Positions 10,665 through 46,383 of a stretch of 64,000 bases of DNA are shown in pieces. This DNA is from Candidatus Zixiibacteriota bacterium (lineage in GTDB: Bacteria; Zixibacteria; MSB-5A5; GN15; FEB-12). The stretch covers positions 2,551 to 66,550 of the forward strand of contig JBFMGC010000004.1 in the NCBI GenBank assembly GCA_040752815.1, in the 5' to 3' direction. A program made the position numbers and the translations under genes. The notes beneath the pieces were generated by a model. It worked only from the letters and a program-made list of their open reading frames with translations, was not told where the DNA came from and made no database searches. Each line of letters begins with the position of its first letter. The first letter of the stretch is position 1.

Positions 10665-12095
10665 CTAAGATGTCGAGTTGAGATTATAGTCTTTGATCTT
10701 GTAGAGCAGGGACCGGTAGCTTATGTCCAGGAGTTCGGCCGCCTTGCGGCGGTTCCAGTTGGTCTTGGTCAGGACCTCGGCAATAAGTCGTTTCTCTTCG
10801 GCAGCGACCTTTCTGCCGACTCTCCCTTTCAGAGAATAACCGACTTCAGCCTCACCCTCTGCCGGTATGGGCGCGATCACCGGTTCCGAGGGCGGCCGGG
10901 GATCCTCGGGGCGTGCCATGTGCGCGGCAGCGGCGATAAGCTCCGTGATTATCTGCTCGTCGGAGCGCACCACCACCTGCTTGACCATATTCTCGAGCTG
11001 GCGGACGTTGCCGGGCCAGTGGAAGGCCATCAGCCGGGCGACCGTTTCGGGCGTCAGTGCCTGGTACTCCTTGCTGTAGAGCTTGTTGTACTTGGCCAGG
11101 AAGTGAGTCAAGAGCAGCGGTATATCTTCTTTTCGATCCCGCAAGGGCGGCAGGAACAACGTGATTTCATTGAGGCGGTAAAACAGATCGTCACGAAATT
11201 CCCGGCTGGATATGGCATGCTCAAGATTGCGGTTAGTGGCGCAGATGATTCGGACATCCACCCGGATGTTGTTGATTCCGCCGACCCGCACGAACTCCTG
11301 CTGCTCGAGTACTTGAAGCAGTTTTGACTGCAGTTCCAGCGGCATATCGCCGATTTCGTCGAGGAATATGGTCCCCTTGTTAGCTGATTCAAACCGACCC
11401 TGCTTGGTTTTGTGCGCGCCCGTAAAGGCGCCTTTCTCGTACCCGAAAAGCTCCGCCTCAAGTAAGTCACGGGGAATGGCGGCACAGTTCACTTTGACAA
11501 ACGGCTGATCCCGACGCGAGGACAACTGGTGCAGAGAACGAGCCACGATCTCCTTACCGGTACCGGACTCACCTCGTATAAGCACAGTCAACTCCGAGTC
11601 GGCCACCTGATCGATTATTCCCTTCACGCGGGCCATCGGTTCGGAATCGCCGACAAATGTTGAGTAGTCGCTGCGCGCTTCCAGCTCTTTCTTCAGAGCG
11701 GAAACCTCCTCCCGAAGTTTCACCCGCTCCATCACACCGTTCAGGTGAATCTCCACTTCACGGACGTCGAACGGCTTGTCGATAAACTCGGCCGCCCCAA
11801 GCCGCATGGAGTCGACCACATACTTGGTGCCTCCATGACCGGAGATCATAACTACCTCGGGCCGGTTCTCCATCTTGTTCAGCTTCTCCAGGACCTCCAG
11901 GCCGGTCATGCCGGGCATCTTGATATCCAGCAGAATCAGGTCCGGTTTCTCCGTGGAGACCATTTGAATGCCCTGGATTCCGTCGGTAGCCGACACAAAC
12001 TCGAAACTCGTAGACAGCCCTTCGGAAAGAATCCAGGCGATCTTGGGATCGTCGTCGATAACCAGCACTTTGATCTTGGCTTTTTCGCGAGGCAT
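10665..12095 (-). CDS. sigma-54-dependent response regulator (NtrC family: REC + AAA+ + Fis-type HTH)
   Basis: REC (VLVIDDD...LILLDIKMPG), Walker A GESGTGKE, GAFTGA loop (YEKGAFTGA), C-terminal HTH (NWNRRKAAELLDISYRSLLYKIK). ATG at 12095 has a GAGAGGG RBS. The ORF-track start at 12140 is a TTG without an RBS. Confidence 0.93.
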   Translation of the reverse strand: MPREKAKIKVLVIDDDPKIAWILSEGLSTSFEFVSATDGIQGIQMVSTEKPDLILLDIKMPGMTGLEVLEKLNKMENRPEVVMISGHGGTKYVVDSMRLGAAEFIDKPFDVREVEIHLNGVMERVKLREEVSALKKELEARSDYSTFVGDSEPMARVKGIIDQVADSELTVLIRGESGTGKEIVARSLHQLSSRRDQPFVKVNCAAIPRDLLEAELFGYEKGAFTGAHKTKQGRFESANKGTIFLDEIGDMPLELQSKLLQVLEQQEFVRVGGINNIRVDVRIICATNRNLEHAISSREFRDDLFYRLNEITLFLPPLRDRKEDIPLLLTHFLAKYNKLYSKEYQALTPETVARLMAFHWPGNVRQLENMVKQVVVRSDEQIITELIAAAAHMARPEDPRPPSEPVIAPIPAEGEAEVGYSLKGRVGRKVAAEEKRLIAEVLTKTNWNRRKAAELLDISYRSLLYKIKDYNLNSTS

Positions 12096-12194
12096 AGTTG
12101 TCGCCCTCTCGAAGTTACTTATCGGCAACAAATCCTGCAATTTAAGTCAGAATCTACCGCCGTTGCCGAAAAGTCGCAATAACCTGCAATAGAA

Positions 12195-14336
12195 TCAAGG
12201 TTTATATGGGAAATACACAGAGACCGTGGTCCCCTTGCCTTCGACGGAGCTCAGATGCAGCGTGCCGCTGTGTGCGGAGATGACCCGCTCCACCACGGCC
12301 AGTCCGAGGCCGGTACCAGTCTCTTTAGTTGTGAAGTAGCGATCAAACACTCGGGACAAGTGCTCTTTCTTGATACCACAGCCGGTGTCCGAGACGTGGA
12401 TGCCGAGGTAGTCTTCATGGCGGTGGGGGGGTCGCTCGATCCGTCCGGTCACAGTCAACTTGCCGCCGTCGCGCATGGCGTCAACCGCGTTAATGAACAG
12501 GTTGAGAAAGACCTCCATCACCTGGTTCTTATTGGCGATGATCTCCCAGTTGCCATCGGAAAAATCGGTTGAGTACTCAATCCGATTCTTCCTCAGGTCA
12601 GGCCCGACAAGCTCGGAGGCTCGCTGAACTATATGGCGCAGGTCGAGCTTGGCGGTTTCATAACGATTGGGATTGGAAAAATTGACCAGTTCCTTGACAA
12701 GGTCGTTCATGCGGTGGATTTCTTCCTCCGCCATCTTGAAGAAATCCGACTTCTCGGTGATATCCGGCCAGCGCTGGCGGAGTATCTGCAGCTCGCCTTT
12801 GATAGTCGTGAGAGGGCGCCGCAGATCGTGCGAAATCTCAGAGATCATGTTCCCCATGGTCATGAGGCGGGTGGCGTTGAGCAGCGCTTTTTCCTTTTCG
12901 AACAGCACGGATGCCTGTGAAATGACCAACTGGGCTAGCGTGAAATCCTCCGGTGAATAAGCGCGTTCGTCGTCGGCACCGAGATAGAACACGAATGCCA
13001 GCTCGCCTGAACGCAAGATGGGAACCGCCATATAGGCGTGGGCCGGCTGGGGAAAATGTTTGTTGCCCCGGATCCGGTCTCCGACGAGTTGACTCAGCGC
13101 GGCTATATCTTCGAGATTCACTTGATCGGGATTGAGCCCGGTGATGAGGACCGCCTCGCGACTTACTCTCGAGAGATCGATCTTGCCGCTTTCGGTGAGC
13201 GGTATATCGGTCTTTCCCAGGGCGCCGGCCGGTATAAGCGCCCGGGCAGCGTTATCCCAGGCGAACCAGATCGCATAGTCGACTGGGAAAGCCCGGCGGA
13301 GCTTCTCGATCAACACCTGGCGAAAGTTTTCCCACGAATCGATCCCGGGCAGAGCGCGTGAGATCTGATGCAGCACTTCGTATTCTACCAACCGACGTCG
13401 GTTCTTTTCAAACTGGGAGGCGTCATCTACCGCCACAGCAGCTTGCGAGGCGAAATTGCTCAGCAGGCGGAGATCGTCACTCGTAAACACCTGGCCGCCG
13501 TTTTTATTGGCCATGTTTATGACCCCGAGCACGGTGTTCTTGATCCGCAGCGGCGCGCAGAGGAGCGACGCCGCGCCGTACCGTTCCCGGTTTATCCTCT
13601 GAAAACGACTGTCCTTCTCGACATCCTCGACAATAAGCGGCTCGCCGGACTTAGCAACGAATCCGGCGATAGAAGCCCCCAGGGGCAGCTTGGTCTTGCG
13701 GACGATGTCGTCGTGAAGGCCGATAGCCGCCTCAATGGTCAGGTATTGACCGGTTTCGTCCACCAGCATAATCGAGCCGACATTGGCCTCAGTCACAGTC
13801 GAGGCCAGGATGACGATCTGGCGCAGCAGGTCATTGAGGTTCGCCAGCGAACCTATCGACTTACCCGCCTCGTAGAGGGCGTTGAGTTCCCCCACACGCT
13901 GCTGGAGAATGAGATTGGAGAGGCGGAGTTCTTCCACCAATCGCAAGCGGGCGAGCTCGGACTCGCGACGCTCCAGGGCGCGGGTTACCGACAGCTCCAG
14001 GCGATCAAAATCGACCGGCTTGAGAAGGTAATCGTAAGCGCCCAGACTGATGGCCTCCAGCGCGCTGTCCATCGACGCGTACCCGGTCAGCAGGATGACC
14101 GGGATGCCCTCATCGACCTGCTTGACTATCTGGAGAATCTCCAGACCGTCGAGAACGGGCATTTTGATATCCGAGATGACGAGATCGACTTTCTGGTCAC
14201 GGATCGCCTTGGCGGCATCGGGCGCCTGCTGAAAGGCGAGGACTTCGCGTCCGTCTCCCTGTAGCAGCGCCGAGAGTGACTCGCACAAACGGAGTTCGTC
14301 GTCGACTATGAATATCCGGGCAGCGGGTTTGGTCAT
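12195..14336 (-). CDS. hybrid sensor kinase REC-GAF-GAF-HisKA-HATPase (no TM segments seen)
   Basis: N-terminal receiver (IFIVDDE...LVISDIKMP), two GAF-like regions, H-box ISEISHDLRRPL, and G-boxes DTGCGI / GTGLGL. ATG at 14336 lies 5 nt after the upstream stop. Confidence 0.88.
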   Translation of the reverse strand: MTKPAARIFIVDDELRLCESLSALLQGDGREVLAFQQAPDAAKAIRDQKVDLVISDIKMPVLDGLEILQIVKQVDEGIPVILLTGYASMDSALEAISLGAYDYLLKPVDFDRLELSVTRALERRESELARLRLVEELRLSNLILQQRVGELNALYEAGKSIGSLANLNDLLRQIVILASTVTEANVGSIMLVDETGQYLTIEAAIGLHDDIVRKTKLPLGASIAGFVAKSGEPLIVEDVEKDSRFQRINRERYGAASLLCAPLRIKNTVLGVINMANKNGGQVFTSDDLRLLSNFASQAAVAVDDASQFEKNRRRLVEYEVLHQISRALPGIDSWENFRQVLIEKLRRAFPVDYAIWFAWDNAARALIPAGALGKTDIPLTESGKIDLSRVSREAVLITGLNPDQVNLEDIAALSQLVGDRIRGNKHFPQPAHAYMAVPILRSGELAFVFYLGADDERAYSPEDFTLAQLVISQASVLFEKEKALLNATRLMTMGNMISEISHDLRRPLTTIKGELQILRQRWPDITEKSDFFKMAEEEIHRMNDLVKELVNFSNPNRYETAKLDLRHIVQRASELVGPDLRKNRIEYSTDFSDGNWEIIANKNQVMEVFLNLFINAVDAMRDGGKLTVTGRIERPPHRHEDYLGIHVSDTGCGIKKEHLSRVFDRYFTTKETGTGLGLAVVERVISAHSGTLHLSSVEGKGTTVSVYFPYKP

Positions 14337-14340
14337 GGCG

Positions 14341-15717
14341 TTACGGCTTGGCCACCAACGGAAGGTGTATATCGAAACAGCCCCCGTGGTCTGCATTCGT
14401 ATAGATTATCGACCCCTTGTGGCTTTTGATGATACTCTGACAAATGGACAGTCCCAGGCCGGAGCCGTCATCACCCTTGGTCGTGAAGAACGGCTCGAAA
14501 ATGCGCGGGATGACTTCCGGTGGGATGCCGGGGCCGGTGTCGGCGAAGCGAACGTGTGCCTCGTTGCCGCGGCGGTTGAGTTCCACCGTGAGTCGTCCAT
14601 CCTGTTTCATGGCGTCGCGCGCATTCAAGATCAGGTTCAGAAAGACTTGTCGGAGGTGGTCGGCGCTCCCTTTCACAAACAGCGGCTCGGACGACAGTTT
14701 TCTCTGTATGTCGATTCGGGAAATCGAAAGCTGGCGCGAGGACAGCGCCAGGGTTCCGTCGAGAATCTCTCGGAGGTCCACGACGGCGAATTCGACCCGC
14801 GACGGCCGGTGAAACCGCCGCAGCTCCTCGACGATTCTGGCAATCCGATCGATCTCCTGGCTGACTACCTCGACATAGTGCTTCTGTTTGTCCGGCTCGC
14901 CGCCGGAACGCTGCAGCAGCAACAGGTAGTTCTTGATAATACCGAGCGGGTTGTTGACCTCATGGGCGATTTTGGCCGACATCTCGCCGAGCGTAGCCAG
15001 CCGCTCCGCCTGCATGAGCTGACTCTGCGCCTCCCAGAGTTGTTCATTGGCTGCCTTCTCCCCTTCATAGAGGCGGGCGTTTTCAATAGCGACAGAAATC
15101 TGGTTTCCCAGCGACGAAATAAACTCTATTTCGTCCTGTGTAAACGCCTTCTCGGCGATCTTGTCGGCCAGCAGAAACAGCCCGGCCAGGCGGGTTTTGT
15201 AAATGAGCGGGACCAACATACCGCCTTTGAAGAAGCCAAGCACCTCTCTCTCCCTCACCGTGGTTAGGTCAGGCGAGAGATCCACCACCGGTGTCGGTCG
15301 GTTCAGTCGACTGAGATACCGTATGAGCCGGGTGTCATCCTGGAAGCCGCTTCCGGCAGGCGGCATGGCTCCGGACCCCTTCGCTTTGGCCAGCCGGAAC
15401 TCGCGGGAATCGGCGCTCTCTTTCAGAAAAAGGGCGGCCCGAAGCGCGCCCACCTGTCCCAGGCAGGTGAAGATGAACGACTCGAGAAGAGTTTTGTAAT
15501 CCAGCACCGCGTTGAAATTGCGGCTGATTTCGAATATCGTGTAGAGATCGAAGATCTTGCGCTTGAGCTGACGATTGGTCCGCGATAACTCCTCCAAGCG
15601 GGCCTCTGCGGATTTCTCCGGTTCGGGCGGGCGCTTTTTGAGCGGCGAGGGGCGAGTTGCCCGTGGGATTGACGCGCTTCGCTTTCCCTTGAGATGGCTG
15701 TCCCTGGTTCGGGCCAT
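14341..15717 (-). CDS. soluble GAF-domain sensor histidine kinase
   Basis: Basic Lys/Arg/Pro-rich N-terminal tail, a coiled coil, a GAF region, H-box SAKIAHEVNNPL, and an ATPase domain (DTGPGI, GSGLGL). Its ATG overlaps the folC stop by 1 nt (TAATG). Confidence 0.88.
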   Translation of the reverse strand: MARTRDSHLKGKRSASIPRATRPSPLKKRPPEPEKSAEARLEELSRTNRQLKRKIFDLYTIFEISRNFNAVLDYKTLLESFIFTCLGQVGALRAALFLKESADSREFRLAKAKGSGAMPPAGSGFQDDTRLIRYLSRLNRPTPVVDLSPDLTTVREREVLGFFKGGMLVPLIYKTRLAGLFLLADKIAEKAFTQDEIEFISSLGNQISVAIENARLYEGEKAANEQLWEAQSQLMQAERLATLGEMSAKIAHEVNNPLGIIKNYLLLLQRSGGEPDKQKHYVEVVSQEIDRIARIVEELRRFHRPSRVEFAVVDLREILDGTLALSSRQLSISRIDIQRKLSSEPLFVKGSADHLRQVFLNLILNARDAMKQDGRLTVELNRRGNEAHVRFADTGPGIPPEVIPRIFEPFFTTKGDDGSGLGLSICQSIIKSHKGSIIYTNADHGGCFDIHLPLVAKP

Positions 15718-17005
15718 TATTGTCTTCCGTATTTGCTCAGGTATTCGCCTACCAGATAATGCGAACCTATAATGGCTATGATATCACTTGGATCGGCATT
15801 CTCCAAGAGTCGATCATAGGCCATTTCGAAGCGGCTAAACCTCTTGACGGGCACTCCGTGCCAGTCAAGAGCGCTCACCAGTTCCCTGGTGTCGACACTT
15901 CGCCCCGTTTTGAGCGGAACGAGCCGGAAGCTGTCGGCGACCCTGGCCAGATGGTCGATCATCTCCTGATGGGCTTTCCGCTTCACGAAACCAGCGATGA
16001 TCGATGCTTTTCGGCCGGGAAAGACCCGCTTGAAAGTGTCGACAAACGCTGCCGCCCCACCCGGATTGTGGCAGACATCGAGCACCACAACCGGCGATCG
16101 GGCGCCTTCCCGAACGATTTGGAACCGCCCGGCCCAAACGGTATGCTCCACGCCACGTTTGATCGCGCGGCCCGACAGCGATATTCCCTGCCGTCTCAAA
16201 ACTTCGACCGCTTTCAATACAACCGCCGTGTTGCGCAACTGGTGCGGACCTCTGAGCGCGGGCGTCAGATTCTCGAACCGCGAATCATCCGAATGGAAGC
16301 TCAGCGTAAGCTGCTTCATATCCGCGGAGAAGTCACCGTGCCTGAGGGTCACTAGCTCCGAGCCGCGCTCACGGCAAGCGGCTGCTACTACGCGCCGTGC
16401 TTCCCGCGGCAGCAAGCCGATTACATTTGGGACGCCCGGTTTGATTATACCCGCCTTCTCGCCGGCGATCGCCTCGAGAGTCGGCCCCAGGATCTCGACG
16501 TGATCGTAGTTGATGTCGGTGATGATTGTCAGCGCCGGTTTGAGAACGTTAGTGGCATCGAGTCGTCCGCCAAGTCCGGTCTCGATGACGGCTACATCAA
16601 CCGCCTGGCGGGCGAAATAGTCGAACGCCAGCGCCGTGACTAGTTCAAAGAAGGAGAGTTTTTTTTTACCAGCGCGGTGCGATGACTATCGACGTAGCGT
16701 GCTACCGCCTGCTTCTTAATCAGACTTCCGTCGACCCTTATCCGCTCGCGAAAGTCAACGAGATGCGGCGAGGTAAACAGCCCGGTTCGGTAACCGGCCC
16801 GGCGAAAGATCTCAGCCAGCATGGCTGAACATGAACCCTTGCCGTTGGTACCGGCCAGATGCACGGTCAGGTACTTACGCTGGGGGTTGCCACGTTCTTC
16901 GAGGTAATCCGTAATATTCTCCAGCCCGAGTTTCATGCCGAAGAACTCGCGCGAGAGAATGAACCGCTCGGCCTGCCGATAGGTGTGGCGTCTCACTTTC
17001 TCCAC
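15717..17005 (-). pseudogene. folC: folylpolyglutamate synthase / dihydrofolate synthase, interrupted by a 1-nt frameshift in a homopolymer
   Basis: The N-terminal ORF (16640-17005) has HLAGTNGKGS. The C-terminal ORF (15717-16415) and the open frame upstream of it encode LSFFELVTALAFDYFA...VIETGLGGRLDATN...GEKAGIIKPG. The frames switch at the T9 run at 16659-16667 (A9 on the coding strand). Ten A would give continuous ...TALVKKKLSFFELVT.... Confidence 0.85.
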
Positions 17006-17835
17006 ATGTACTCCAGCAGGCTGATAATCGTGGGGCGGAGGTCCTTGCGGTCAACTACCGCGTCGACAAAGCCCTTTTCCAGCTGAAACTCGGACGATTG
17101 AAACCCTTCGGGCAGATCCTGGCCGATCGTTTGCTTGATGACACGGGGGCCGGCAAATCCGAGGAGCGCTTTTGGTTCGGCGATGATGACATCACCTAGC
17201 GCGGCGAACGAGGCCATCACACCGCCGGTGGTCGGATTGGTCACCACCGAGATGAACGGAATCTGCCGGTCCGCCAGCACGGCCAGAAGCCCGGAGGTTT
17301 TGGCCATCTGCATCAGCGAGAGCACTCCCTCCTGCATGCGGGCTCCGCCGGAGCAGGAGACGATAATCAGCGGAAGCTGCCGTTCGATGGCCCGCTCAAT
17401 CGCCCGGGCGACCTTCTCGCCGATCACCGAACCCATCGAGCCGCCGATATAGGCAAAGTCCATGATGGCGAACGAAACTGTCTTGCCGCCGATACTGCCG
17501 ATCCCGGCGATCAGTCCTTCGGTCGGACCGGCCGCATGAGTGGCGGCCTTAATGCGCTCGGGATACGGCTTGGAATCGACAAACTCGAGCGGGTCGGCCG
17601 ATTCAAGGTGGTTGTCATACTCATCGAGAGCGCCGTCGTCCAGGAGCAGCGCGATATATCGCCGGCAGGAAATGCGAAAATGAAAATTACAGGCGGGGCA
17701 GACCCAGAAGCCCTGCTCCAGTTTCTTGCTGTATATGATCTCGCCGCAGGATTCGCACTTATGCCACAACCCTTCCGGTATGTTGCGTTTTTCCTGGGCC
17801 TCCACCCCCGATTTATCTTTTCTAAACCACTCCAT
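16993..17835 (-). CDS. accD: acetyl-CoA carboxylase carboxyltransferase beta subunit
   Basis: N-terminal Zn ribbon CESCGEIIY...CPACNFH and a carboxyltransferase core (GGSMGSV, SGGARMQEG). Confidence 0.95.
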   Translation of the reverse strand: MEWFRKDKSGVEAQEKRNIPEGLWHKCESCGEIIYSKKLEQGFWVCPACNFHFRISCRRYIALLLDDGALDEYDNHLESADPLEFVDSKPYPERIKAATHAAGPTEGLIAGIGSIGGKTVSFAIMDFAYIGGSMGSVIGEKVARAIERAIERQLPLIIVSCSGGARMQEGVLSLMQMAKTSGLLAVLADRQIPFISVVTNPTTGGVMASFAALGDVIIAEPKALLGFAGPRVIKQTIGQDLPEGFQSSEFQLEKGFVDAVVDRKDLRPTIISLLEYMWRK

Positions 17836-17838
17836 TTT

Positions 17839-18300
17839 TCACCGATCGCTGGCGGCCACGTTGATCCAGCGCATCATTATCAGGGCGTCCTCGACCGGGC
17901 TCCGGTAATAACGAACCCACCGATCGACAGTGCGAAAGGCAGAAGCCTCATAAAAGCAACGAGCTGCTTCGTTTGAGATTCTCACCTCAAGGTAAACCAG
18001 CTCGCATTCCCGATCCCGGGCGAGATCTAAGATATGGGCGAGAACCTGCTTGGCAATTGATTTTCTCCGGAGCGTCGGGTCCACGGCCAGGTTGGTAAGG
18101 TGAAGCTTATGGTTCTCAAGCTGATAGCAGGCATAGGCGACAATCTCGCCCTCGCGCTCGGCGACCAGCGCACCGGCCTCGGGGTCGTTTATGTGCTCCC
18201 TGAACGCTTCCAGCGGCCAGGGATCCGAGAAAGCGTTACTCTCCAGCGACATGACCCTTTTCAAATCGGCCTTGTGCATTGGCCTGATGACCAGCTCCAT
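17839..18300 (-). CDS. rimI: ribosomal-protein-alanine N-acetyltransferase (GNAT)
   Basis: MELVIRPMHKADL...NLAVDPTLRRKSIAKQVL (GNAT motif A). The ORF-track extension to 18516 overlaps tsaB. ATG at 18300 follows the tsaB stop (18302) directly. Confidence 0.85.
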   Translation of the reverse strand: MELVIRPMHKADLKRVMSLESNAFSDPWPLEAFREHINDPEAGALVAEREGEIVAYACYQLENHKLHLTNLAVDPTLRRKSIAKQVLAHILDLARDRECELVYLEVRISNEAARCFYEASAFRTVDRWVRYYRSPVEDALIMMRWINVAASDR

Positions 18301-18301
18301 T

Positions 18302-18988
18302 TCAGACCTCCCCGCGGCGGCGATCAAACCTGATTTCCGCAATCGCCTTCTGATAATATACCGGTTCGAGCGCGGCCAGATCGGCGTGCTGCCTCGCCTG
18401 CAGTTTATTAAGACCGACTCGAAGCAAATCCATGGCGTCGTAGTTGAACCGACGGGCAGCCTGCTGGAGGTGATCCGACAAAAACGCCTCAGCGCCACAT
18501 CCAACGGTATACACAACGTAATCCCCGATCTTCGCTGACAGTTCCGCCTCGGAGACTATCGTGACAATTGGCTCGGCGTTGTCCTCGTGTCCGTAAGTCC
18601 CGAGATACAATTCATCCTTGCGCGATGGAATCACCACATAGGTTGGTCTTTCTTCGTGACGCAGGCGCGCACCGACTAGTTCAAACATGGTGACTCCGAC
18701 TATCGCAATCTCCCCCGCTACTGCTATGCCCTTGGCTGCGGCAAGACCAATTCTTAACCCGGTAAAGGATCCCGGCCCAAGCGAAACCACAATGCCCTGA
18801 AGTTCTCCGACGGCTACCCCTGACGACTGGAAGAGCTCATCGATCTTCTTCATGATAATCTGTCCGTGGGTGCGGGCCACTGATTCACTCGATTGCACCG
18901 ACCTGTCTCCGTGATGGAGGAGGGCCAGGTTGAGCCGCATCGTGGCCGTATCGACCGCCAGAACGTTTTCGAAACTCATCGCATTCAT
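18302..18988 (-). CDS. tsaB: tRNA t6A37 biosynthesis protein TsaB (YeaZ)
   Basis: VLAVDTAT...VVSLGPGSFTGLRIGLAAAKGIA. Confidence 0.9.
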   Translation of the reverse strand: MNAMSFENVLAVDTATMRLNLALLHHGDRSVQSSESVARTHGQIIMKKIDELFQSSGVAVGELQGIVVSLGPGSFTGLRIGLAAAKGIAVAGEIAIVGVTMFELVGARLRHEERPTYVVIPSRKDELYLGTYGHEDNAEPIVTIVSEAELSAKIGDYVVYTVGCGAEAFLSDHLQQAARRFNYDAMDLLRVGLNKLQARQHADLAALEPVYYQKAIAEIRFDRRRGEV

Positions 18989-19416
18989 GACTGCACCAGC
19001 GAAAAGCTGATTTGCCGCTGCTCCTCGTCAATGATCGAAAACTCGGCCAGATAGTAACGCGACGGCAGACGATAATCGGCCCGTTCGCCCCACTCTACTA
19101 TGACAATCCCGTCGCGGCTGAGAAAGTCATCCCAGCCGATCTCGGTCAACTCCGAGACATCCCCCATCCGGTACAGATCAAGATGATAGATCGGCGGGTC
19201 ACCGGGGTACTCGTTGACGAAAGTGTACGACGGTGAGGTGACGAGACGCTCATCTATGCCCCGCGCCGCAACCAGCGCCCGCACGAAAGTTGTTTTGCCT
19301 GAGCCGAGCTCTCCCCTAAGGATGATGACATCGCCGCTGTCAAACGACGCCGCCAGGCGTCTTCCCAGGGCGACAGTTTCATCCTCGGAATGCGAGATGA
19401 CTTTGAGCACCTTCAC
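18985..19416 (-). CDS. tsaE: tRNA t6A37 biosynthesis ATPase TsaE (YjeE)
   Basis: P-loop GELGSGKTTFVRAL, SPSYTFVNEY, HLDLYR. GTG start. Confidence 0.9.
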   Translation of the reverse strand: MKVLKVISHSEDETVALGRRLAASFDSGDVIILRGELGSGKTTFVRALVAARGIDERLVTSPSYTFVNEYPGDPPIYHLDLYRMGDVSELTEIGWDDFLSRDGIVIVEWGERADYRLPSRYYLAEFSIIDEEQRQISFSLVQS

Positions 19417-19420
19417 GCGG

Positions 19421-20977
19421 CTACCTGGGATTGAGCACCGCTACCGGCACGATCATTTCTTCAAGCGAAATGCCGCCATGCTGGAACGAATTCTGGAAGC
19501 GGCGAACCATTTCGTTATAGTTGTTGGGGTAGACGAAATAGAAATCTTCCCTGGCGATCAGGAACGTGGTGCCGAGAGTGAAAGCCGGCAGGCGCCACTC
19601 CTGCGGCTTCTTGATAACCAACGCCTCTTTTGGATCGGCCTTCAGGTTATCGCCGTATTTGTAACGCAAATTGGTCGATGTAGTCCGCCGCCCGTGGGCC
19701 ATGGTACCGCGACGGCACAGCACCGAACCGTGATCAGAGGTTACGACGACTGTAAAACCTCGGCCGGCAAAAGCTTTAAGCAAACCGAACAGGGGCGAAT
19801 GAGTGAACCAGGTTCGCATCAACATGCGGAAAGCGGCCTCGGAGCCGGCGATTTCCTTCAGGATCACGTTTGATGATCGCCCGTGCACGAGAATATCAAG
19901 GAAATTGAAAACAAAGGTCACCAATCGGCTATCGAAGTAATCCGATGCTCGCCGGAGGATTTCATCCCCCTGGCTGTTATCATTTATCTTGATGAACTTG
20001 AGCGATTTCTCGAGCCGAACGCCATGGCGCGCCAGGTTCTCCATGAGCAGACGGTCCTCGTACTTGTTGAGCGAGCCTTCGTCCTCGCCGTACGTATCGG
20101 GGTAGGCACGGTGGATGTCGTCCGGAAACATGCCGCTGAACAGGGCGTTGCGCGCGAACGGAGTGGCACTCGGGAGTATTGCATAGTAGTAGTGCCGCTG
20201 GATATCGTAGAACTCGGCAACCATCGGCTCGACCAGCATCCACTGATCCAGGCGCATGCAGTCTACTACGATATAGACGACCGGCCGGCCCTGCTTGAGC
20301 GGCGGCACGACATACTTGCCGGTAATGTCCGGCGAGAGCATCGGGCGGCTCTTGCCTCGGAGCCAGTCAGGGTAGGTTCTCAGGATGTACTTGGTGAACT
20401 CGGTATTCCACTCGCGCAGCGTGCCATCGTGGGTCTCCTGCAAACCGGAGTCCGTGCTTTCGTCGAGTTCGAGATTCCACTCCGCCAAAATACGGGCGGC
20501 GTCCTGCCAGTCCTCGGGCGACATGGCGCCGTACAGACGCTGACTGAAGCGATTGATTTCGGTGATATATCGCCGCATGGATGACGAGCCGATAATTCGG
20601 CGGGAATCGAGCAGCCGTTTTATCACCATCAAAATCTGCGACGGCACCACCGGCTTGACCAGGTAGTCATCGATCTTCTGCCCGATCGCCTCGTCCATGA
20701 GCGTTTCTTCTTCCGACTTGGTCACCATGACCACCGGGAGGTGCGGCTTGAGCGCCTTGATTTCCTCGAGCGTGGTCAAGCCATCCTTGCCCGGCATCAT
20801 TTCGTCCAGCAGCACCAAATCGAAGTTCTGGCGCTGGACTTCCGCGATACCGTCGTCCCCGGACATTGCCCCGACTAATTCAAATCCCTTGCCTTCAAGG
20901 AAGACAAAATGCGAGCGCAGCGAATCGATCTCATCATCGATCCAGAGAATTCTCTTCTTGTCGGTAGTGGTTGGCAT
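19421..20977 (-). CDS. response regulator with C-terminal PglZ/alkaline-phosphatase-like domain (PorX-like)
   Basis: REC (ILWIDDEIDS...LVLLDEMMPGKDG...VVMVTKSEEE) followed by a PglZ-like region (VVYIVVDCMRLDQW, ILPSATPFARNALFSGMFP, VVVTSDHGS). 518 aa from the ATG at 20977. The ORF-track start at 21085 overlaps the upstream kinase. Confidence 0.75.
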   Translation of the reverse strand: MPTTTDKKRILWIDDEIDSLRSHFVFLEGKGFELVGAMSGDDGIAEVQRQNFDLVLLDEMMPGKDGLTTLEEIKALKPHLPVVMVTKSEEETLMDEAIGQKIDDYLVKPVVPSQILMVIKRLLDSRRIIGSSSMRRYITEINRFSQRLYGAMSPEDWQDAARILAEWNLELDESTDSGLQETHDGTLREWNTEFTKYILRTYPDWLRGKSRPMLSPDITGKYVVPPLKQGRPVVYIVVDCMRLDQWMLVEPMVAEFYDIQRHYYYAILPSATPFARNALFSGMFPDDIHRAYPDTYGEDEGSLNKYEDRLLMENLARHGVRLEKSLKFIKINDNSQGDEILRRASDYFDSRLVTFVFNFLDILVHGRSSNVILKEIAGSEAAFRMLMRTWFTHSPLFGLLKAFAGRGFTVVVTSDHGSVLCRRGTMAHGRRTTSTNLRYKYGDNLKADPKEALVIKKPQEWRLPAFTLGTTFLIAREDFYFVYPNNYNEMVRRFQNSFQHGGISLEEMIVPVAVLNPR

Positions 20978-20987
20978 CGGGTTCTTC

Positions 20988-22244
20988 TCAGAGTCCGCCG
21001 GATATGGGGAGCGTGACTTGGAAAACGGTTTCGCCGGGCTGAGATCGCACCAGGGTGATCCGGCCCACGTGGTACTCTTCGACAATCCGCTTAACCAGAG
21101 TCAGTCCCATGCCCCAGCCGCGCTTTTTTGTGGTAAAACCGGGACGGAATATCTTTCGGGCCGATCCCGGCGGTATGCCGTGGCCGTTGTCAGCGATTTC
21201 AAGCATAACCTGTGTGCGATCAGGGTTGATACTGGTGCTTATACTCACGCGGCCCGATTTCGGATCGACCGCCTGCAGGCTGTTCTTGACCAGATTCTCC
21301 AGCACCCACGAAAACAGCTCCGGATTTAGCCGCACCGGCGGGATGTTGCCCGGAGTGACAACTATCTGTGTGCCCTGTCCTTCGAACGGCAACCGGGCGC
21401 GATAATATTGCACGCAGTCGGTTACCAGGGAGTTGAGATCACATTCTTTCACTTCCGGTATTGAGCCAATCTGACTGAACCGGGTGGCGACCCGCTGGAG
21501 TCGGATAACATCCATTCGCATATTCTGGACAGTATTGTCGACGAGCTGTACTTGTCCTTCGCGATCCAAGTCCTGCCGGTTTTCGGGGCTGATTACTTCC
21601 AGCCAGCCCATGAGCGACGACAACGGCGTACCCAACTGATGAGCCGTCTCCTTAGCCATGCCGACCCAGATGTACCGTTCTTCGGAGCGCCGGATATTCT
21701 GGAAACCGATTACCGCTACGGTTACAAAAGCCAGCACTATGCCGATAGCGACAAACGGCATCACTCGCAACTGCTTGATTATTTCGGAGTCGCCATAGAG
21801 GAAGTAGTTGATGTTGTTTTCGCCGAAATTGAGCGGGTACTCACCATTGTGGCGGTACATGGCCTCCGCTTCTTCCTTTACGCGCTCAAGCGATCTTCGG
21901 CTGGTGTCGTCGGAAGGGATACCCGGAATATTGCGCCAGGACACCGGTTCTCTGTTACTGTCGAGTACCACCACCGGAAATCTTGCCTTGACGATGATTT
22001 CATCAAAAATGAACGGCAGAGCGTCTTCCGAACTCGGCGACGTCACCGCCCATTGCCATAAATGAACATATTTATCGACCTGGTCACGCGTATCGATCTG
22101 CAGGCGTTCTATAACCTGAAAAGTGTACCAGATGAACGCGCCCGAGATAACCACCACGCCGGTTACCAGAAATATCTTAAAAAAAGTCGATCGCCCGATA
22201 TACAGATCGGCCAGACCCCCACGCGTTTTTTTTATCATGGCCAT
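20988..22244 (-). CDS. membrane sensor histidine kinase (two TM segments flanking a ~135-aa periplasmic loop; PorY-like)
   Basis: TM1 FFKIFLVTGVVVISGAFIWY, TM2 VMPFVAIGIVLAFVTVAVIGF, H-box KETAHQLGTPLSSL, ATPase DNGHGI / GWGMGL. Its start overlaps the serS stop by 1 nt. Confidence 0.88.
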   Translation of the reverse strand: MAMIKKTRGGLADLYIGRSTFFKIFLVTGVVVISGAFIWYTFQVIERLQIDTRDQVDKYVHLWQWAVTSPSSEDALPFIFDEIIVKARFPVVVLDSNREPVSWRNIPGIPSDDTSRRSLERVKEEAEAMYRHNGEYPLNFGENNINYFLYGDSEIIKQLRVMPFVAIGIVLAFVTVAVIGFQNIRRSEERYIWVGMAKETAHQLGTPLSSLMGWLEVISPENRQDLDREGQVQLVDNTVQNMRMDVIRLQRVATRFSQIGSIPEVKECDLNSLVTDCVQYYRARLPFEGQGTQIVVTPGNIPPVRLNPELFSWVLENLVKNSLQAVDPKSGRVSISTSINPDRTQVMLEIADNGHGIPPGSARKIFRPGFTTKKRGWGMGLTLVKRIVEEYHVGRITLVRSQPGETVFQVTLPISGGL

Positions 22245-23509
22245 CAGCCGATTCTATCCGCCCCGCCCATGTACTTTCGGAGCACCTCGGGAATAGTCAC
22301 GCTGCCGTCCGGGTTCTGGTAATTTTCCAATATCGCGGGAATGAGCCGTGCCAGGGCCAGACCGGAGCCGTTGAGCGTGTGGGGGAAGTCAAGTTTCTTG
22401 TCAACATTGCGGTAGCGAAGATTCATGCGTCGGGCCTGGAACGACTCAAAGTTAGAAATCGACGAAATCTCGAGATACCGCTCCACGCCGGCGGCCCAGA
22501 GCTCGAGATCGTAGGTCTTGGCTGAAGCAAATGACAGGTCTCCAGTAGCCAGCATGACCACCCGGTAGTGGATGTTCAGGCTGCGAAGAACCTGTTCACA
22601 CTGTGCCACCAGGGATTCGAGTTCGTCGTACGATCTTTCCGGGTGGACGATCTTGACCAGCTCGACCTTGTCAAACTGGTGCACCCGGATCATCCCCCGG
22701 GTATCTTTACCGGCGGCGCCGGCTTCTCTACGGAAACAGGGGGAATGGGCCACCATGTACACCGGGAGTTCTTCGTCGGTGATGATCCGTTGTTTGTACA
22801 GATTCGTCACTGGTACTTCGGCAGTGGGGATCAGCCAGAGGTCATCAGACTCGATCCGGTACATGTCGTCGGCCAGTTTGGGCAACTGTCCGGTACCGTA
22901 CATGGTGTCGGCGTTTACGATATACGGCGTGGAGACTTCGACAAACCCGGCGGCAGTGTGCAGGTCAAGCATATAGCTGATCAACGCCCGCTGCAGCCGA
23001 GCGCCCATTCCGCGGAGAACATAAAAGCCCGATCCGGCAACAGCCGCGCCTGCGGCCAAATCCAGTATGCCCAGCTTCTCGCCGACTTCCCAGTGCGGCA
23101 GGACCTTGAAAGCCGGCTCCAGTTTCGCGCCCCATTCACGCACCACCTTGTTGGCGGCGTTGTCTTTGCCGACCGGTACCGATTCGTGGGGCAGGTTCGG
23201 CACCAATTGCAGGAGCTTCTGGAGGCCCGCTTCCAGTTCGCGCAGGTTTTCGTCCTGTACTTTGATATCGTCGCCCAGGCGGCGGGTGGCCTCGATAGCT
23301 GCGTCGGCGCTTTGCCCGGCTTTCTTCTTGATTGCGATATCGGCCGAGGCCTGGTTGCGCTCGGCTTTGAGCCGCTCGACCGTACGGATTATCTGGCGTC
23401 GGCGTTCGTCGAGAGCGAGGATTCTGTCGATATCACACTGCTCGTTTTTGTGGGCCGCACCGGTCCGAACCAGGTCGGGAGCCTCGCGGATTAACTTCAT
23501 GTCCAGCAT
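22244..23509 (-). CDS. serS: serine--tRNA ligase
   Basis: 421 aa. N-terminal coiled-coil arm and class-II core (FRREAG, GSGLALARL...). Confidence 0.96.
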   Translation of the reverse strand: MLDMKLIREAPDLVRTGAAHKNEQCDIDRILALDERRRQIIRTVERLKAERNQASADIAIKKKAGQSADAAIEATRRLGDDIKVQDENLRELEAGLQKLLQLVPNLPHESVPVGKDNAANKVVREWGAKLEPAFKVLPHWEVGEKLGILDLAAGAAVAGSGFYVLRGMGARLQRALISYMLDLHTAAGFVEVSTPYIVNADTMYGTGQLPKLADDMYRIESDDLWLIPTAEVPVTNLYKQRIITDEELPVYMVAHSPCFRREAGAAGKDTRGMIRVHQFDKVELVKIVHPERSYDELESLVAQCEQVLRSLNIHYRVVMLATGDLSFASAKTYDLELWAAGVERYLEISSISNFESFQARRMNLRYRNVDKKLDFPHTLNGSGLALARLIPAILENYQNPDGSVTIPEVLRKYMGGADRIG

Positions 23510-23655
23510 CGGTGATCCTCAAGTCGGCATTGCTCTTAGAAAGGTCCGAAACTAAGGGCCAAGTTAGCACAGTTCAATGAAAATTACCAGTCCGGGATCG
23601 GCCCGATACGTTACCGGTGCACTTTGAGAATTCTCAATCGGCGGCCAGAAATTCC

Positions 23656-23683
23656 TTGCCTTTTCTGCGAGTCGACGTAAAAT
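23656..23683 (+). promoter_or_regulatory. candidate sigma-70 promoter for rpmB
   Basis: TTGCCT (23656-23661), a 16-nt spacer, then TAAAAT (23678-23683), 35 nt upstream of the ATG. Confidence 0.35.
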
Positions 23684-23717
23684 AGGGAGCTGTAGCTACT
23701 ATCGAATTGAGGATTAC

Positions 23718-23939
23718 ATGGCCAAGGCTTGTGAAATCTGCGGGAAAAAGCCGCTCTTCGGACATAACGTTTCTCACGCTCACAACGTGACCAAGCGGCG
23801 ATTCATGCCCAATTTGCAGCAGGTGCGTGCGATTGTAAACGGCCGGCCCCGGCGGGTGACTGTCTGCGCGTCGTGCCTGAAAAGCGGCAAAGTGGTAAAG
23901 AACGTTCAGGGACGGAAACCCCGCCCAGCTGCCGTGTAA
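23718..23939 (+). CDS. rpmB: 50S ribosomal protein L28
   Basis: [34 protein letters not shown]. Confidence 0.95.
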
Positions 23940-23963
23940 TTCAGTGGCATGGAATAAGTTACG

Positions 23964-23989
23964 GCCGCCCTTATGGGGCGGCTTTTTTT
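23964..23989 (+). terminator. rho-independent terminator of rpmB
   Basis: GCCGCCC (23964-23970) pairs with GGGCGGC (23976-23982), followed by a T7 run (23983-23989). Confidence 0.85.
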
Positions 23990-24020
23990 GCCTTTGCGGG
24001 CAGCTTTAGATCAGGGTTCC

Positions 24021-24062
24021 ATGAAATAAATGCCGCCGGCAGGGTAGTTTAACCGGCGGCAT
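24021..24062 (-). terminator. probable terminator of the dcw cluster (after ftsZ)
   Basis: 10-bp stem ATGCCGCCGG (24030-24039) / CCGGCGGCAT (24053-24062). On the minus strand it is followed by TTATTTCAT. Two further hairpins (24101-24121 and about 24075-24093) lie between it and the ftsZ stop. Confidence 0.55.
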
Positions 24063-24149
24063 GGTGGAGGAACCAATAGAGCTGCTCGCTCTATGTTTGT
24101 CTCCCGGCACGAGGCCGGGAGGTATGTGCTTTGACTTATCCCTCAGGGA

Positions 24150-25457
24150 CTAGTTGTCTTCGAGCCTCCTGATATAGGCTGGGATCGTGCGATCCTCCTC
24201 GGTGAAAATGGGTACCCGGCTGGGCGGTCGCAGGCCGAAGCGATTACCGTTGCCGTTTCCGCCATCAGAGGACTCAGCCGTTGCCGGCTCTATTCGGGGT
24301 TGATCCTCGTTATACGTTGGCACTCCGCCGACGGCCACGACCGCATCGCGGGCGTTGACCACCCGGCGGACAGGAATCGCCTGTATGGCGTCTTCCGGAA
24401 ACAGTGACATCACTTTGGGCTGCTGCGATCCGATGGGTACGGCTTTCGGCTCTTCCTTGGTTCGGGACCGGGCGGTCTGCTCGTCCTTGCCGATACCCGT
24501 GGCTATTACGGTCACCCGCATCTTGTTGGTCATCTCGGGATCGATCACGGCGCCAAAAATGATATTGGCATTGTCACCCGCTTTCTCGTAGATGAGCGAC
24601 GTCGCGGTGTTGACATCATGCAGGGTCATGTCTTCGCCGCCGGTGATGTTTATCAGCACCCCTTTGGCTCCGGCGATCGAGACTGATTCGAGCAGCGGCG
24701 ATGAAATCGCCTGCTGGGCGGCGTCGATAGCGCGCTCCTCGCCCTCGCCGCTGCCAGTGCCCATAAGGGCATTGCCCATCTCCTGCATGACCGTGCGGAC
24801 ATCGGCAAAGTCGCAGTTGATGAGTCCCGGTATCGTGATCAGATCAGATATACCTTTGGTCGCCTGGTGCAGGACGTCATCGGCGGTGGCAAATGCGGCC
24901 GACAGGGTGGTATTCTTGTCGACGATTTCCAGCAGCCGTTCATTGGGGATGGTAATCAGCGTATCGACTCGCGCCTTGAGTTCGGCCAGGCCCTCGTCGG
25001 CGCGGTCAATCCGCTTGCGCCCTTCGAAGCGAAACGGCGTGGTGACGATCGCGACCGTGAGAGCGCCGGATTCCTTGGCGATTTCGGCCACGATGGGAGC
25101 CGCGCCGGTACCGGTGCCGCCGCCCATACCGGCGGTAATGAAAACGAGGTTGGGGCGGCCGATCTGGTCGCCGACCTCGCGGCGGCTTTCTTCCATGGCC
25201 AGCCGTCCGATATCAGGATTGGCCCCCGCGCCGAGGCCGTTGGTGACGCCCAGACCGATCTGGATGCGCTTGTCGGCCCGGTTCTGTTCGAGCGCCTGGG
25301 CGTCGGTGTTGACCGCAATGAACTCGACGCCCTGGAGGTCGGAGGCGATCATGCGGTTGATGGCGTTGCCACCGCCGCCGCCGACTCCGACCACCTTGAT
25401 GTTCGCCACGCCGACAAAATCGGAGGCGAAGTTGAACTGGTGTCTTCTTTCTGACAT
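24150..25457 (-). CDS. ftsZ: cell division protein FtsZ
   Basis: [23 protein letters not shown] and the C-terminal peptide [18 protein letters not shown]. Confidence 0.98.
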
Positions 25458-40540: not shown

Positions 40541-40873
40541 GAAGTTTTTTGAAGAATCTGCGGCCATTAAGTTGAAATCACACAAGAAGTAATGGGGGAT
40601 GATTTTATTCCGGATCCCAACCGCAACGGACTCAGATAATAACAGTACTCCCCACTTCCGCTACCGACTCGATGATTTCTGGGGTAAGGAACCGCCGAGT
40701 ATGGGGTTACTCCCGGCTAGTTTGCTCGATCCGAATGACCGGGCAAGTTGGTTCGACATAGAACCAGCCCCAGTAACGACCTGCATACCAATGCGTTAGC
40801 GCAATTCAGGAACATAGAGGGTCAACCAAACCGCCGTCGCACCTGGATTGCGCATATCCAATGGGGATTCAGT

Positions 40874-43201: not shown

Positions 43202-44072
43202 GCTGACGTCGCGCAAAGCCGACCGCCAGCGAAATCCCGAGGCCGACCATAAGCAAAAGCCCGCACAGCCATAGAAGCGGGAATTCGTACCACCTGGCGT
43301 ACTTCCTGAGATAACGGTACATCGACGTGTGCGAGATGATCTTCATGCGGTAGGGGCGCAGGCTGGTCGACGCGCCCACATGATGTTCGACTGTCGCCTT
43401 CGGATAATAAAGCAGCCGGTACCCCGCCAGTTTCAGGCGATGGCAATAGTCGACATCGTTAAAGAGAATGGGAAACGACTCGTCCAGGTAACCTACCTCC
43501 TCGACCACCGTCCTCGGCAGCAGCATCACGGCGCCCATCGGCTGGTCGACATACATTTCGCCCTTGTGGTCGAACCAGCCCATACGCCAGTGCGAGAACT
43601 CCCGGTGATGCGGAAAGAGCCGATCCAGCAGGAGAGCCCGGTAGATGACGTGGCGATACGTTGGTAGCGCGCGAGCCGATTTGTGCGGGCGGCCGTCAAA
43701 GTAGACATACCCCGGCCCGATCATGCCGAGCGCGGGTTCGCTCGTCAGCCGTTCAAGAAGGGCCCTGGTGGCTCCCGGGGGGAAGCGAAGATCCTGATTC
43801 AGGATGTACAGGAACGCACCTCTCGCCCGGTTCAGGCCGATATTTGCCGCGCGGGCGAAGCCCAGATTGGCGCTGTTTTCCACAAGCTGTGCGCCCGGAT
43901 AGTTCTCCCTGATGAACTCTACCGAGCCGTCACTAGATCCATTGTCAACGAGAAGTAACTCATACGATGTAAAGGCAAGGTTGTCGGTGAGCGTGCGCAT
44001 CAGGTCGGGCAGAAAAGCACGGCCGTTAAAGACGATGACAATAGCAGAGATTTCTGGTGTCTGGTCGGTCAT
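43176..44072 (-). CDS. family-2 glycosyltransferase
   Basis: ISAIVIVFNGRAFL...LLLVDNGSSDGS...NLGFARAANIG...LNQD (GT-A with DxD-like motif). Its 3' end overlaps the convergent C25 gene by 26 nt. Confidence 0.85.
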   Translation of the reverse strand: MTDQTPEISAIVIVFNGRAFLPDLMRTLTDNLAFTSYELLLVDNGSSDGSVEFIRENYPGAQLVENSANLGFARAANIGLNRARGAFLYILNQDLRFPPGATRALLERLTSEPALGMIGPGYVYFDGRPHKSARALPTYRHVIYRALLLDRLFPHHREFSHWRMGWFDHKGEMYVDQPMGAVMLLPRTVVEEVGYLDESFPILFNDVDYCHRLKLAGYRLLYYPKATVEHHVGASTSLRPYRMKIISHTSMYRYLRKYARWYEFPLLWLCGLLLMVGLGISLAVGFARRQLTGRGSSS

Positions 44073-45310: not shown

Positions 45311-46383
45311 GCGGAGCGCCTCGCTATAACTTCGCGGAAGACGTTAATCGTCTCGGCGATGTTGTTCTCGAAGATACCTCTTTGTTCGATCATCTCGGCA
45401 TTTCGGAGACGCATTTTCTCAAAATCCTGGTCCGCTGTCAGAATACGGGAAATCACCGACGACAAACTCTGTACGTCCGAGAGGTCAAAGAGAAAGCCGG
45501 AGTCTTTCGTCACCCATTCGCGCACGCCGGGGATATCGCCGATCACAGGGATCAGTCCCAGCCCCATGGCTTCGAGCAGAGACGCCGGCGATGAATCAGA
45601 AATCGCAGCCGAAAGGTATACGTCGTGCCCCGCGACGAACTCGAGATACTCCGGCCGCGGCAGCTTCTCGTAAAAAGCCACTCCCCGGCTGACCCGATGC
45701 GCTGCCTCATCCTTAAACCTCATCAGGAGTCCCCCGAAGTTAGGAAAAGTCAAGGTCACTTCGCCGGAATTGCACAGATCGGCCAATGCACGAATGATGA
45801 ACATGTTGTTGTACACCTCTTCATGCGGGCGCGGCGCCAGTATCCTCAGCGGGCGCGACAAGCTCATATTAGCACGTCGATATACCAAGTAATTCCGTTC
45901 AATCCCCCAGGCAATCGTTCTCGAATCACGCAGTTTGCCGATCTTGCTCGCCTCTTCCAGAATGAAGTCCGAATCGGCCAACACGCAGTCGGCCGATTCG
46001 AGCGCCAGTTTGGTCTTGTGGCGGTGAAATACCGACTTGTGCGGCCCGATCAAAATGTCGGAGCCCCACAGTTGCAGCACGATCGGCAACGAACTCCGCC
46101 GGTCGGCCAGCGCCGCCAGGAATCCGTAGCCGGAGGCGAAGTGCGGATTGACAATATCCGGCCGAGAACGCCTGAACAATGCGCGTACCTCCGACGCTCC
46201 CAGAGCATAGTGTAGCGCCTTGATCGGCCCGCGCCGACGCAGGGCATGATGCGGCATGGCGCCGGACTCGAGCGATGCCGTCAGCACTTCGCAGCCCTGG
46301 CGCTCCAGTTCGGCGGCATATCGTTCGGTGTGGAAGGCTCGGCTGTCCGCGAGCACCAATACCCGCAATGGCCGCTCGGTCAT
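45307..46383 (-). CDS. family-4 (group 1) glycosyltransferase
   Basis: LRVLVLADSRAFHTERY... and the C-terminal EX7E region SSPASLLEAMGLGLIPVIGDIPGVREWV. ATG at 46383 overlaps the upstream stop (ATGA). Confidence 0.85.
   Translation of the reverse strand: MTERPLRVLVLADSRAFHTERYAAELERQGCEVLTASLESGAMPHHALRRRGPIKALHYALGASEVRALFRRSRPDIVNPHFASGYGFLAALADRRSSLPIVLQLWGSDILIGPHKSVFHRHKTKLALESADCVLADSDFILEEASKIGKLRDSRTIAWGIERNYLVYRRANMSLSRPLRILAPRPHEEVYNNMFIIRALADLCNSGEVTLTFPNFGGLLMRFKDEAAHRVSRGVAFYEKLPRPEYLEFVAGHDVYLSAAISDSSPASLLEAMGLGLIPVIGDIPGVREWVTKDSGFLFDLSDVQSLSSVISRILTADQDFEKMRLRNAEMIEQRGIFENNIAETINVFREVIARRSA

Follow-up and report, generated by a model that had tools for sequence, protein, structure and literature searches.

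PorX has been studied as a virulence-factor secretion switch in Porphyromonas gingivalis and as a drug target. Its phosphorylation site is Asp58, the catalytic Thr272 and the Zn ligands have been assigned, and the protein cuts pGpG and oligoadenylates in vitro (PMC9757075). PorX co-occurs with the type IX secretion system, or T9SS (PMC9757075), which has been described as specific to the Fibrobacterota-Chlorobiota-Bacteroidota (FCB) superphylum (PMC8754138). The sensor histidine kinase PorY has transmembrane segments at residues 14-36 and 149-173 and its phospho-acceptor at His193 (PMC5005315). In P. gingivalis, porY (PGN_2001) and porX (PGN_1019) lie about 1000 genes apart (PMC5005315), and the literature calls both proteins orphans; PorY has been questioned as the true PorX kinase, given that the two genes are not linked and that mutants of the two differ in phenotype (PMC9757075; 10.1101/2024.05.15.594396). 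Here, we analyzed 64,000 nucleotides (nt) from the Candidatus Zixiibacteriota contig JBFMGC010000004.1 (positions 2,551 to 66,550), hereafter the window, where a PorY-family kinase gene and a porX gene lie side by side on the minus strand. A note made from the sequence alone, the original prediction, had proposed a PorX-like regulator behind a PorY-like kinase, and had contrasted this with the unlinked orphans of P. gingivalis, a description that matches the literature (PMC5005315, PMC10951265). We read the two genes as the orthologues of porY and porX in Zixibacteria, forming a two-component system in which the kinase gene canonically precedes that of the regulator and which probably works as in P. 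gingivalis, and we put the probability of this reading at about 0.8.

The regulator gene (19421-20977, with its ATG at 20977) encodes 518 amino acids (aa), the same length as P. gingivalis PorX, to which it is 40% identical. Its product has a CheY-like receiver, a helical linker, and a phosphodiesterase domain of the PglZ/alkaline-phosphatase superfamily, and the Pfam models Response_reg and PglZ matched it with E-values of 4.3e-22 and 1.5e-15. The NCBIfam equivalog model NF052313, T9SS_RR_PorX, gave 617.9 bits, twice its cut-off of 300, over profile positions 2-513 of 513. Among crystal structures, the protein aligned with P. gingivalis PorX (7pv7, E = 4.2e-130, residues 9-518) and with Flavobacterium johnsoniae PorX (8ted, E = 3.8e-128, and 8p6f, E = 3.4e-128, residues 5-518), over 510 residues, with full-length similarity and the same domain order in the F. 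johnsoniae protein. The alignment to P. gingivalis PorX placed the phospho-acceptor Asp58 of the receiver at codon 20804-20806, beside an acidic pocket (D14 and D15) and the conserved T86 and K108. With the roles assigned in PMC9757075, the catalytic Thr272 of the PglZ domain is encoded at 20162-20164 and the Zn ligands D239, D361, and H365 at 20261-20263, 19895-19897, and 19883-19885, respectively, while D415 and H416 (19730-19735) fall in the TSDHGS motif that the original prediction had picked out; Thr272 and all five of these ligands are identical to those of P. gingivalis. In an alignment of 84 PorX sequences, D361, H365, D415, H416, and H500 were invariant, and D14, D15, D58, K108, D239, and T272 were kept in 83, the remaining sequence being gapped at these positions. 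By these comparisons, including the alignment of catalytic and metal-binding residues that had been proposed as a check, we identify the regulator as a bona fide PorX. It is a new member of a known family, and the NCBI annotation pipeline PGAP would already name it PorX. A longer version of the gene, of 554 aa from a TTG start at 21085, was rejected; it would overlap the kinase by 98 nt, and the homologues begin at an MPTT-type N-terminus, with gaps of 9-12 nt.

The kinase gene (20988-22244) encodes 418 aa, for which Pfam shows only a HATPase_c domain (E = 2.7e-19) and a weak HisKA match. Hydropathy analysis (Kyte-Doolittle, 19-residue windows above 1.6) placed a first transmembrane segment at about residues 20-45 (22110-22187) and a second at about residues 157-184 (21693-21776), with a periplasmic stretch of about 110 aa between them. 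The dimerization and histidine phosphotransfer (DHp) domain follows, with the phospho-acceptor His202 (21639-21641) in the H-box KETAHQLGTP, about 18-20 residues after the second segment and with neither a HAMP nor a cytoplasmic PAS domain, and then the catalytic HATPase domain. This is the layout of P. gingivalis PorY, which also has two transmembrane segments, a periplasmic loop of about 110-115 aa, no HAMP domain, a histidine about 20 residues after the second segment, and near-identical H and G2 boxes.

Since no curated model or structure of PorY exists (none in NCBIfam or Pfam, where the best named matches, AtoS and ZraS, were far below cut-off, and none in the PDB, where the best match was ZraS at E = 1e-16), family membership was scored with a hidden Markov model (HMM) of our own and with a recovered P. 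gingivalis porY. The latter was obtained from metagenome contigs with three published primers (PMC8050853): an 18-mer primer alone had over 120 chance matches, and the two further primers led to four P. gingivalis contigs. The recovered product has the published length of 395 aa, and BLASTP aligned the window kinase with it from the first transmembrane segment to the C-terminus, collinearly, at 31% identity over 412 columns (E = 7e-70). Moreover, across 13 family members drawn from several phyla, P. gingivalis PorY with its His193 included, no variation was seen in the H-box (KETAHQLGTP) or in the G2 region (TK.RGWG.GL). The HMM, built from the alignment of these 13 and thus partly circular for the window kinase, which was among them, gave 543 bits for that kinase and 472-574 bits for the 25 kinases found upstream of porX (window, survey loci, and two other Zixibacteria genomes), with 13 high scorers standing outside the model; the two other kinases of the window scored 87 and 82 bits, and no other kinase in the window or the loci exceeded 102 bits. 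Identity within the family reached 61-86% on the phosphotransfer face of DHp helix alpha-1, compared with an overall 30-41%, and helix alpha-1 of the PorX receiver was likewise strongly conserved. Collectively, these data identify the kinase as a PorY-family member, beyond the mere similarity of layout on which the original prediction had drawn.

The pair stands in a tight run of genes on the minus strand: serS (seryl-tRNA synthetase, 22244-23509, Pfam Seryl_tRNA_N and tRNA-synt_2b), the kinase gene, porX, tsaE (18985-19416, a P-loop protein of the YjeE/UbK family, Pfam TsaE PF02367, E = 1.9e-36, 125 bits against a cut-off of 26.6), tsaB (18302-18988, 228 aa, a TsaD-family match in Pfam, E = 5.6e-20), a rimI-like GNAT acetyltransferase gene (17839-18300, Acetyltransf_1, E = 4.7e-22), and accD, the carboxyltransferase beta gene (16993-17835), which closes the run examined and was assigned by BLASTP matches across loci and by synteny with Carboxyl_trans genes. 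These E-values exclude chance matches of the domains. The TGA stop of serS overlaps the ATG of the kinase gene by 1 nt (TGATG), the kinase gene and porX are separated by 10 nt rather than by the 8 nt first reported, porX and tsaE by 4 nt, tsaE and tsaB overlap by 4 nt (ATGA), and tsaB/rimI and rimI/accD are 1 and 3 nt apart; from serS to accD, every junction overlaps or has a gap of at most 10 nt. The run is probably a long polycistronic cluster, as judged from this spacing. A promoter and terminator scan of 14000-24500 gave counts at the level of shuffled sequence and was uninformative.

The genes from serS to rimI named in the original prediction were thus all found, and so was their order in related genomes. 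Two other Zixibacteria genomes, L001 and L002 (the complete 3.6-Mb CP070674.1), have rpmB followed by serS, kinase gene, porX, tsaE, tsaB, rimI, accD, folC, a GAF kinase gene, and a hybrid kinase gene, and their PorY-family kinases are 62-64% identical to that of the window; rimI and accD of the window were matched to their syntenic counterparts here. The window kinase itself is 100% identical to an NCBI protein of a Candidatus Zixiibacteriota metagenome-assembled genome (MAG), and over 100 further kinase clusters were found at 59-87% identity, the named ones all from Zixibacteria or candidate division GN15, in agreement with the proposed origin outside the Bacteroidota.

How general this linkage is was assessed by scanning one genome per GTDB species with the PorX alignment, which yielded 80 loci, taken with flanks of up to 10 kb; their open reading frames (ORFs) were compared by BLASTP and HMM, and linkage was counted where at least 1.4 kb of sequence was present upstream of porX, as was the case in 74 loci. 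Because several NCBI labels of MAGs were plainly wrong (e.g., 'Methanobacteriota' and 'Hyphomicrobiales'), the loci were assigned to groups with the help of a PorX tree. A PorY-family kinase gene was present upstream of porX on the same strand in 22 of the 74 loci. By the automated criterion 17 of these were directly adjacent; in two more (L130 and L133), gaps of 12-16 nt were masked by ORF-calling artefacts, and in the remaining three, 0.9-5.4 kb separated kinase gene and porX. By label, the linked loci were Zixibacteria (7/7), Latescibacterota (3/3, with a further look-alike that bears the label Gemmatimonadetes), Eisenbacteria (5/6, with one more look-alike), and Poribacteria (3/3), the other two being unclassified MAGs, and serS stood upstream of the kinase gene in Zixibacteria and Eisenbacteria.

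In the other 52 loci, no PorY-family kinase was within reach. These comprised Bacteroidota sensu stricto, Flavobacteriales included, where all 23 loci lacked such a kinase within 10 kb of porX, Balneolales/Rhodothermales (11 loci), Ignavibacteria-like (5) and Chlorobiota-like (4) groups, Calditrichota, unclassified Calditrichota-like organisms, Marinimicrobia, and Cloacimonadota (2 each), and one Eisenbacteria locus (L145). The neighbor-joining PorX tree tracked the organismal groups and, when midpoint-rooted, placed all linked loci in one cluster, which also held the unlinked Cloacimonadota; the linked state could therefore be either ancestral or a derived synapomorphy of that cluster. Our literature search found no report of an operonic PorY-PorX pair, and this arrangement in several candidate phyla outside the Bacteroidota appears to be unreported.

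In three independent MAGs labelled Poribacteria (L165, L166, and L170), a phylum that is usually left out of the FCB group, porY and porX were adjacent and tsaE was not beside the pair. In both Marinimicrobia loci, the gene directly upstream of porX (L174, 5330-7747; L201, 5933-8287) codes for a membrane protein that joins a CHASE2 sensor to an adenylate/guanylate cyclase, and its presence in the position that PorY takes in Zixibacteria is suggestive, since PorX is an oligonucleotide phosphodiesterase.

The periplasmic sensor domain of the window kinase (residues 44-160, 21765-22115, minus strand) has no Pfam family. Its AlphaFold2 model (predicted local distance difference test 80, predicted template-modeling score 0.73) has an alpha-alpha-beta-beta-alpha-beta-beta layout, and the best Foldseek matches were the periplasmic sensor domains of BaeS, CusS, and CpxA together with PAS-like domains; with a best E-value of only 0.013, a PAS/PDC-like fold is only suggested. 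When the domain alone was searched against 1.84 billion representative proteins, 60 clusters were retrieved at E ≤ 0.001, and those matching over nearly its full length were proteins of about 390-425 aa with the PorY layout and 32-38% identity to PorY. Two matches were long proteins (P0135, 1187 aa, and P0170, 845 aa) that matched through many short repeated stretches. In Latescibacterota-like and Poribacteria loci (L132, 8121-9980; L140, 8133-9929; L171, 8154-9989; L165, 8350-9858; L166, 8469-9980), the PorY-family kinases measure 500-620 aa, and their enlarged periplasmic region contains two or three copies of the sensor motif hydrophobic-x-[VI]-x-D-x(2)-G-x(4)-W, as a duplication of the sensor module might leave.

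On the downstream side, a 2026 paper reports that 81 P. gingivalis genomes have ubK1, the gene of a YjeE/TsaE-family kinase, directly behind porX, and that UbK1 phosphorylates PorX Tyr79 in vitro with secretion unaffected (PMC13241743). The window TsaE, likewise right after porX, has the comparable motifs, Walker A GSGKT, SPS, HLDLYR, and EW (Walker A, SPT/S-like, HxDxYR, and EW in the shared description). The adjacency has been documented only within those P. gingivalis genomes (PMC13241743), whereas here tsaE directly followed porX in 59 of 75 informative loci across FCB-group phyla, most Bacteroidota included. In contrast, the window PorX has His at position 79, where just 2 of the 84 aligned sequences have Tyr. 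Because tsaE follows porX this often and Tyr79 is this rare, the adjacency is far older and wider than the phosphosite. As our literature search found no account of it across the superphylum, this linkage also appears to be unreported. More speculatively, the 'housekeeping' neighbor tsaE, whose UbK/YjeE affiliation the original prediction had overlooked, may belong to the signaling module as a second input into PorX; the gene after tsaE in the window is tsaB, which fits the normal role of tsaE in N6-threonylcarbamoyladenosine (t6A) formation.

Two further genes of the window bear on secretion, and the claim that two of its proteins carry T9SS-type C-terminal sorting domains held for both. One (40748-43201, plus strand) encodes a C25 peptidase of the gingipain/PorU family (Peptidase_C25, E = 7.7e-48) with a type A sorting domain (Por_Secre_tail; 43-46 bits on TIGR04183, whose cut-off is 23). 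The other (47303-49519, minus strand) encodes a PorZ-like beta-propeller whose C-terminal 119 aa also pass TIGR04183 (26.8 bits) as a type A sorting domain, while the PorZ model NF052228 (T9SS_PorZ) gave 125 bits, below its cut-off of 260. PDB searches with these two proteins recovered neither PorU nor PorZ. Three glycosyltransferase genes and a GNAT gene lie between them (43176-47417) and lnt adjoins (49480-51039), so that 40748-51039 could be a surface-attachment or glycan module for T9SS cargo.

Identity and architecture being as described above, we infer phosphotransfer, co-transcription, signal, and output, and the pair might work as follows. PorY in the inner membrane would sense an envelope or secretion-related cue through its small, PAS/PDC-like periplasmic domain and would autophosphorylate on His202, for which the motifs are present. 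The phosphoryl group would pass to Asp58 of PorX, as the adjacency of the genes and the biochemistry of the P. gingivalis proteins suggest. Phosphorylated PorX would then dimerize, activating the Zn-dependent PglZ phosphodiesterase, with Thr272 as nucleophile and all ligands conserved, and would engage protein partners, which in P. gingivalis are SigP, a sigma factor of the extracytoplasmic function (ECF) type, and PorL, a motor protein of the T9SS. The result would be tuned expression or activity of a T9SS that exports proteins with C-terminal sorting domains, such as the two in the window; the T9SS is the probable target of PorY-PorX here. The adjacent TsaE/UbK-family protein might, speculatively, feed a second input into PorX.

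Several points weigh against this reading. Among the scanned genes of the window, which include a polyamine-synthesis cluster, valS, glycosyltransferases, and lnt, with the ftsQAZ/mur block standing outside the scan, neither core T9SS genes (porK/L/M/N, sov/sprA, porV, and porT) nor a SigP-like or other ECF sigma factor gene was found, and SigP and PorL, the downstream partners in P. gingivalis, have no counterpart identified here. The original prediction that a T9SS is probably present has only indirect support, from the two proteins with sorting domains, and the 64 kb gave no core genes to add to them; no literature on T9SS in Zixibacteria was found either. The neighbors of the pair are genes of translation and tRNA modification, not of secretion, and they leave room for an output other than secretion. 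Co-transcription is inferred from spacing alone. With an identity of only about 17% between its periplasmic domain and that of P. gingivalis PorY, the window kinase may sense a different signal. Finally, both the PorY-PorX relationship and the action of PorX on the T9SS are disputed even in P. gingivalis (PMC9757075; 10.1101/2024.05.15.594396).

A broader proposal can also be made. The series serS-porY-porX-tsaE(ubK)-tsaB-rimI might be the remnant of an ancestral FCB-group signaling cassette, in which PorY was the original dedicated PorX kinase, TsaE/UbK a second conserved input or partner, and the PorX oligonucleotide phosphodiesterase the means by which translation and tRNA modification are coupled to the status of the envelope or of secretion; the orphans of the Bacteroidota would then be a derived condition and T9SS regulation only one output. 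We regard this as a tentative and rather doubtful extension of the idea that the pair is a PorY/PorX system.

The main rival to T9SS control accepts a genuine two-component system and gives it another main output. PorX would chiefly be a phosphorylation-gated phosphodiesterase of oligonucleotides (nanoRNA or oligoadenylates), tied with TsaE/UbK to translation and tRNA-modification housekeeping, and T9SS control would be an addition made in the Bacteroidota. The succession of porX and tsaE in 59 of 75 loci from many phyla, flanked in Zixibacteria and Eisenbacteria by serS, tsaB, and rimI as well, speaks for such a role, although gene order can stay conserved without functional coupling. The PglZ catalytic residues, invariant in 84 PorX with one sequence gapped, argue that the enzyme activity itself is under selection, and PorX does cleave pGpG and oligoadenylates in vitro (PMC9757075). 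In addition, core T9SS genes were not found near porX in the window, and in P. gingivalis the mutation of the site phosphorylated by the UbK/TsaE-family kinase had no effect on T9SS export (PMC13241743); however, that site, Tyr79, is the one replaced by His here and rarely Tyr among PorX proteins. Against the housekeeping role, PorX was identified through its co-occurrence with T9SS genes and is reported wherever the T9SS is (PMC10951265, PMC9757075), and all porX lineages in our survey are in or next to the FCB group, the sole group credited with this system (PMC8754138). On balance, we consider a mainly housekeeping output unlikely.

It could also be argued that kinase and PorX are neighbors by inherited gene order only, the kinase serving another regulator and PorX receiving its phosphate from another kinase, acetyl phosphate, or TsaE/UbK. 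The porX and porY mutants of P. gingivalis overlap little in phenotype and other phosphodonors have been proposed (PMC9757075; PMC8050853; 10.1101/2024.05.15.594396), and other kinases and regulators are encoded a few kb downstream in the same direction (14341-15717, 12195-14396, and 10665-12140). The pairing is nevertheless favored by the 10-nt gap and by the same kinase-porX order in 22 of 74 independent loci, where one kinase family has stayed upstream of porX in several candidate phyla while the sensor domain and the flanking genes vary. Kinase-then-regulator pairs about 10 nt apart are almost always cognate (PMC5005315, PMC10951265), and in P. gingivalis the two proteins interact and phosphotransfer between them occurs in vitro, according to the account of Kadowaki 2016 given in PMC5005315. 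We judge it very improbable that the two are neighbors by inherited gene order only. As for a role in BREX/Pgl-type phage defense, the shared PglZ catalytic domain gave only weak matches to BREX_PglZ_3 (99.9 bits) and BREX_PglZ_2 (42.3 bits), far below the cut-offs of 250 and 200, and the window protein has a receiver domain and the 518-aa length of PorX, against at least 600 aa for BREX PglZ (PMC9757075), with serS, the kinase gene, and tsaE around it and no brxA/B/C, pglX, or brxL-like genes adjacent, so that this identity is refuted by family scores and gene context, and we give it practically no credence.

Beyond accD, the minus strand continues with folC (15717-17005), which is split by a frameshift near 16640 into an N-terminal part (16640-17005) and a C-terminal part (15717-16415) in different frames. 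Its orthologue is intact in CP070674.1 (425 aa) and split in L001 too; the split may be a MAG assembly error or mark a pseudogene. The three signaling genes downstream on the same strand encode a GAF histidine kinase (14341-15717), a REC-GAF hybrid kinase (12195-14396), and a sigma-54-dependent response regulator (10665-12140); the genes of the two kinases have syntenic counterparts in L001 and L002. In these two genomes, a flagellin gene lies a few kb upstream of serS-porY-porX (L001, 5194-5964; L002, 793-1563), and a beta-helix protein of L001 gave a faint match to Por_Secre_tail; these genomes seem to combine flagella with T9SS-type cargo.

The PorY-PorX pair of the window is not a new kind of system but an ordinary representative of a known one; what is unusual about it is the linkage of the two genes, which is conserved. 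Its finding extends PorXY, and by implication T9SS regulation, beyond the Bacteroidota, and it shows the adjacency of porX and tsaE/ubK, reported so far only within P. gingivalis, to be superphylum-wide. The linked porY-porX genes in loci labeled or clustering as Zixibacteria, Eisenbacteria, Latescibacterota, and Poribacteria provide independent comparative-genomic evidence for a disputed pairing, and they offer natural linked pairs for clean phosphotransfer tests.

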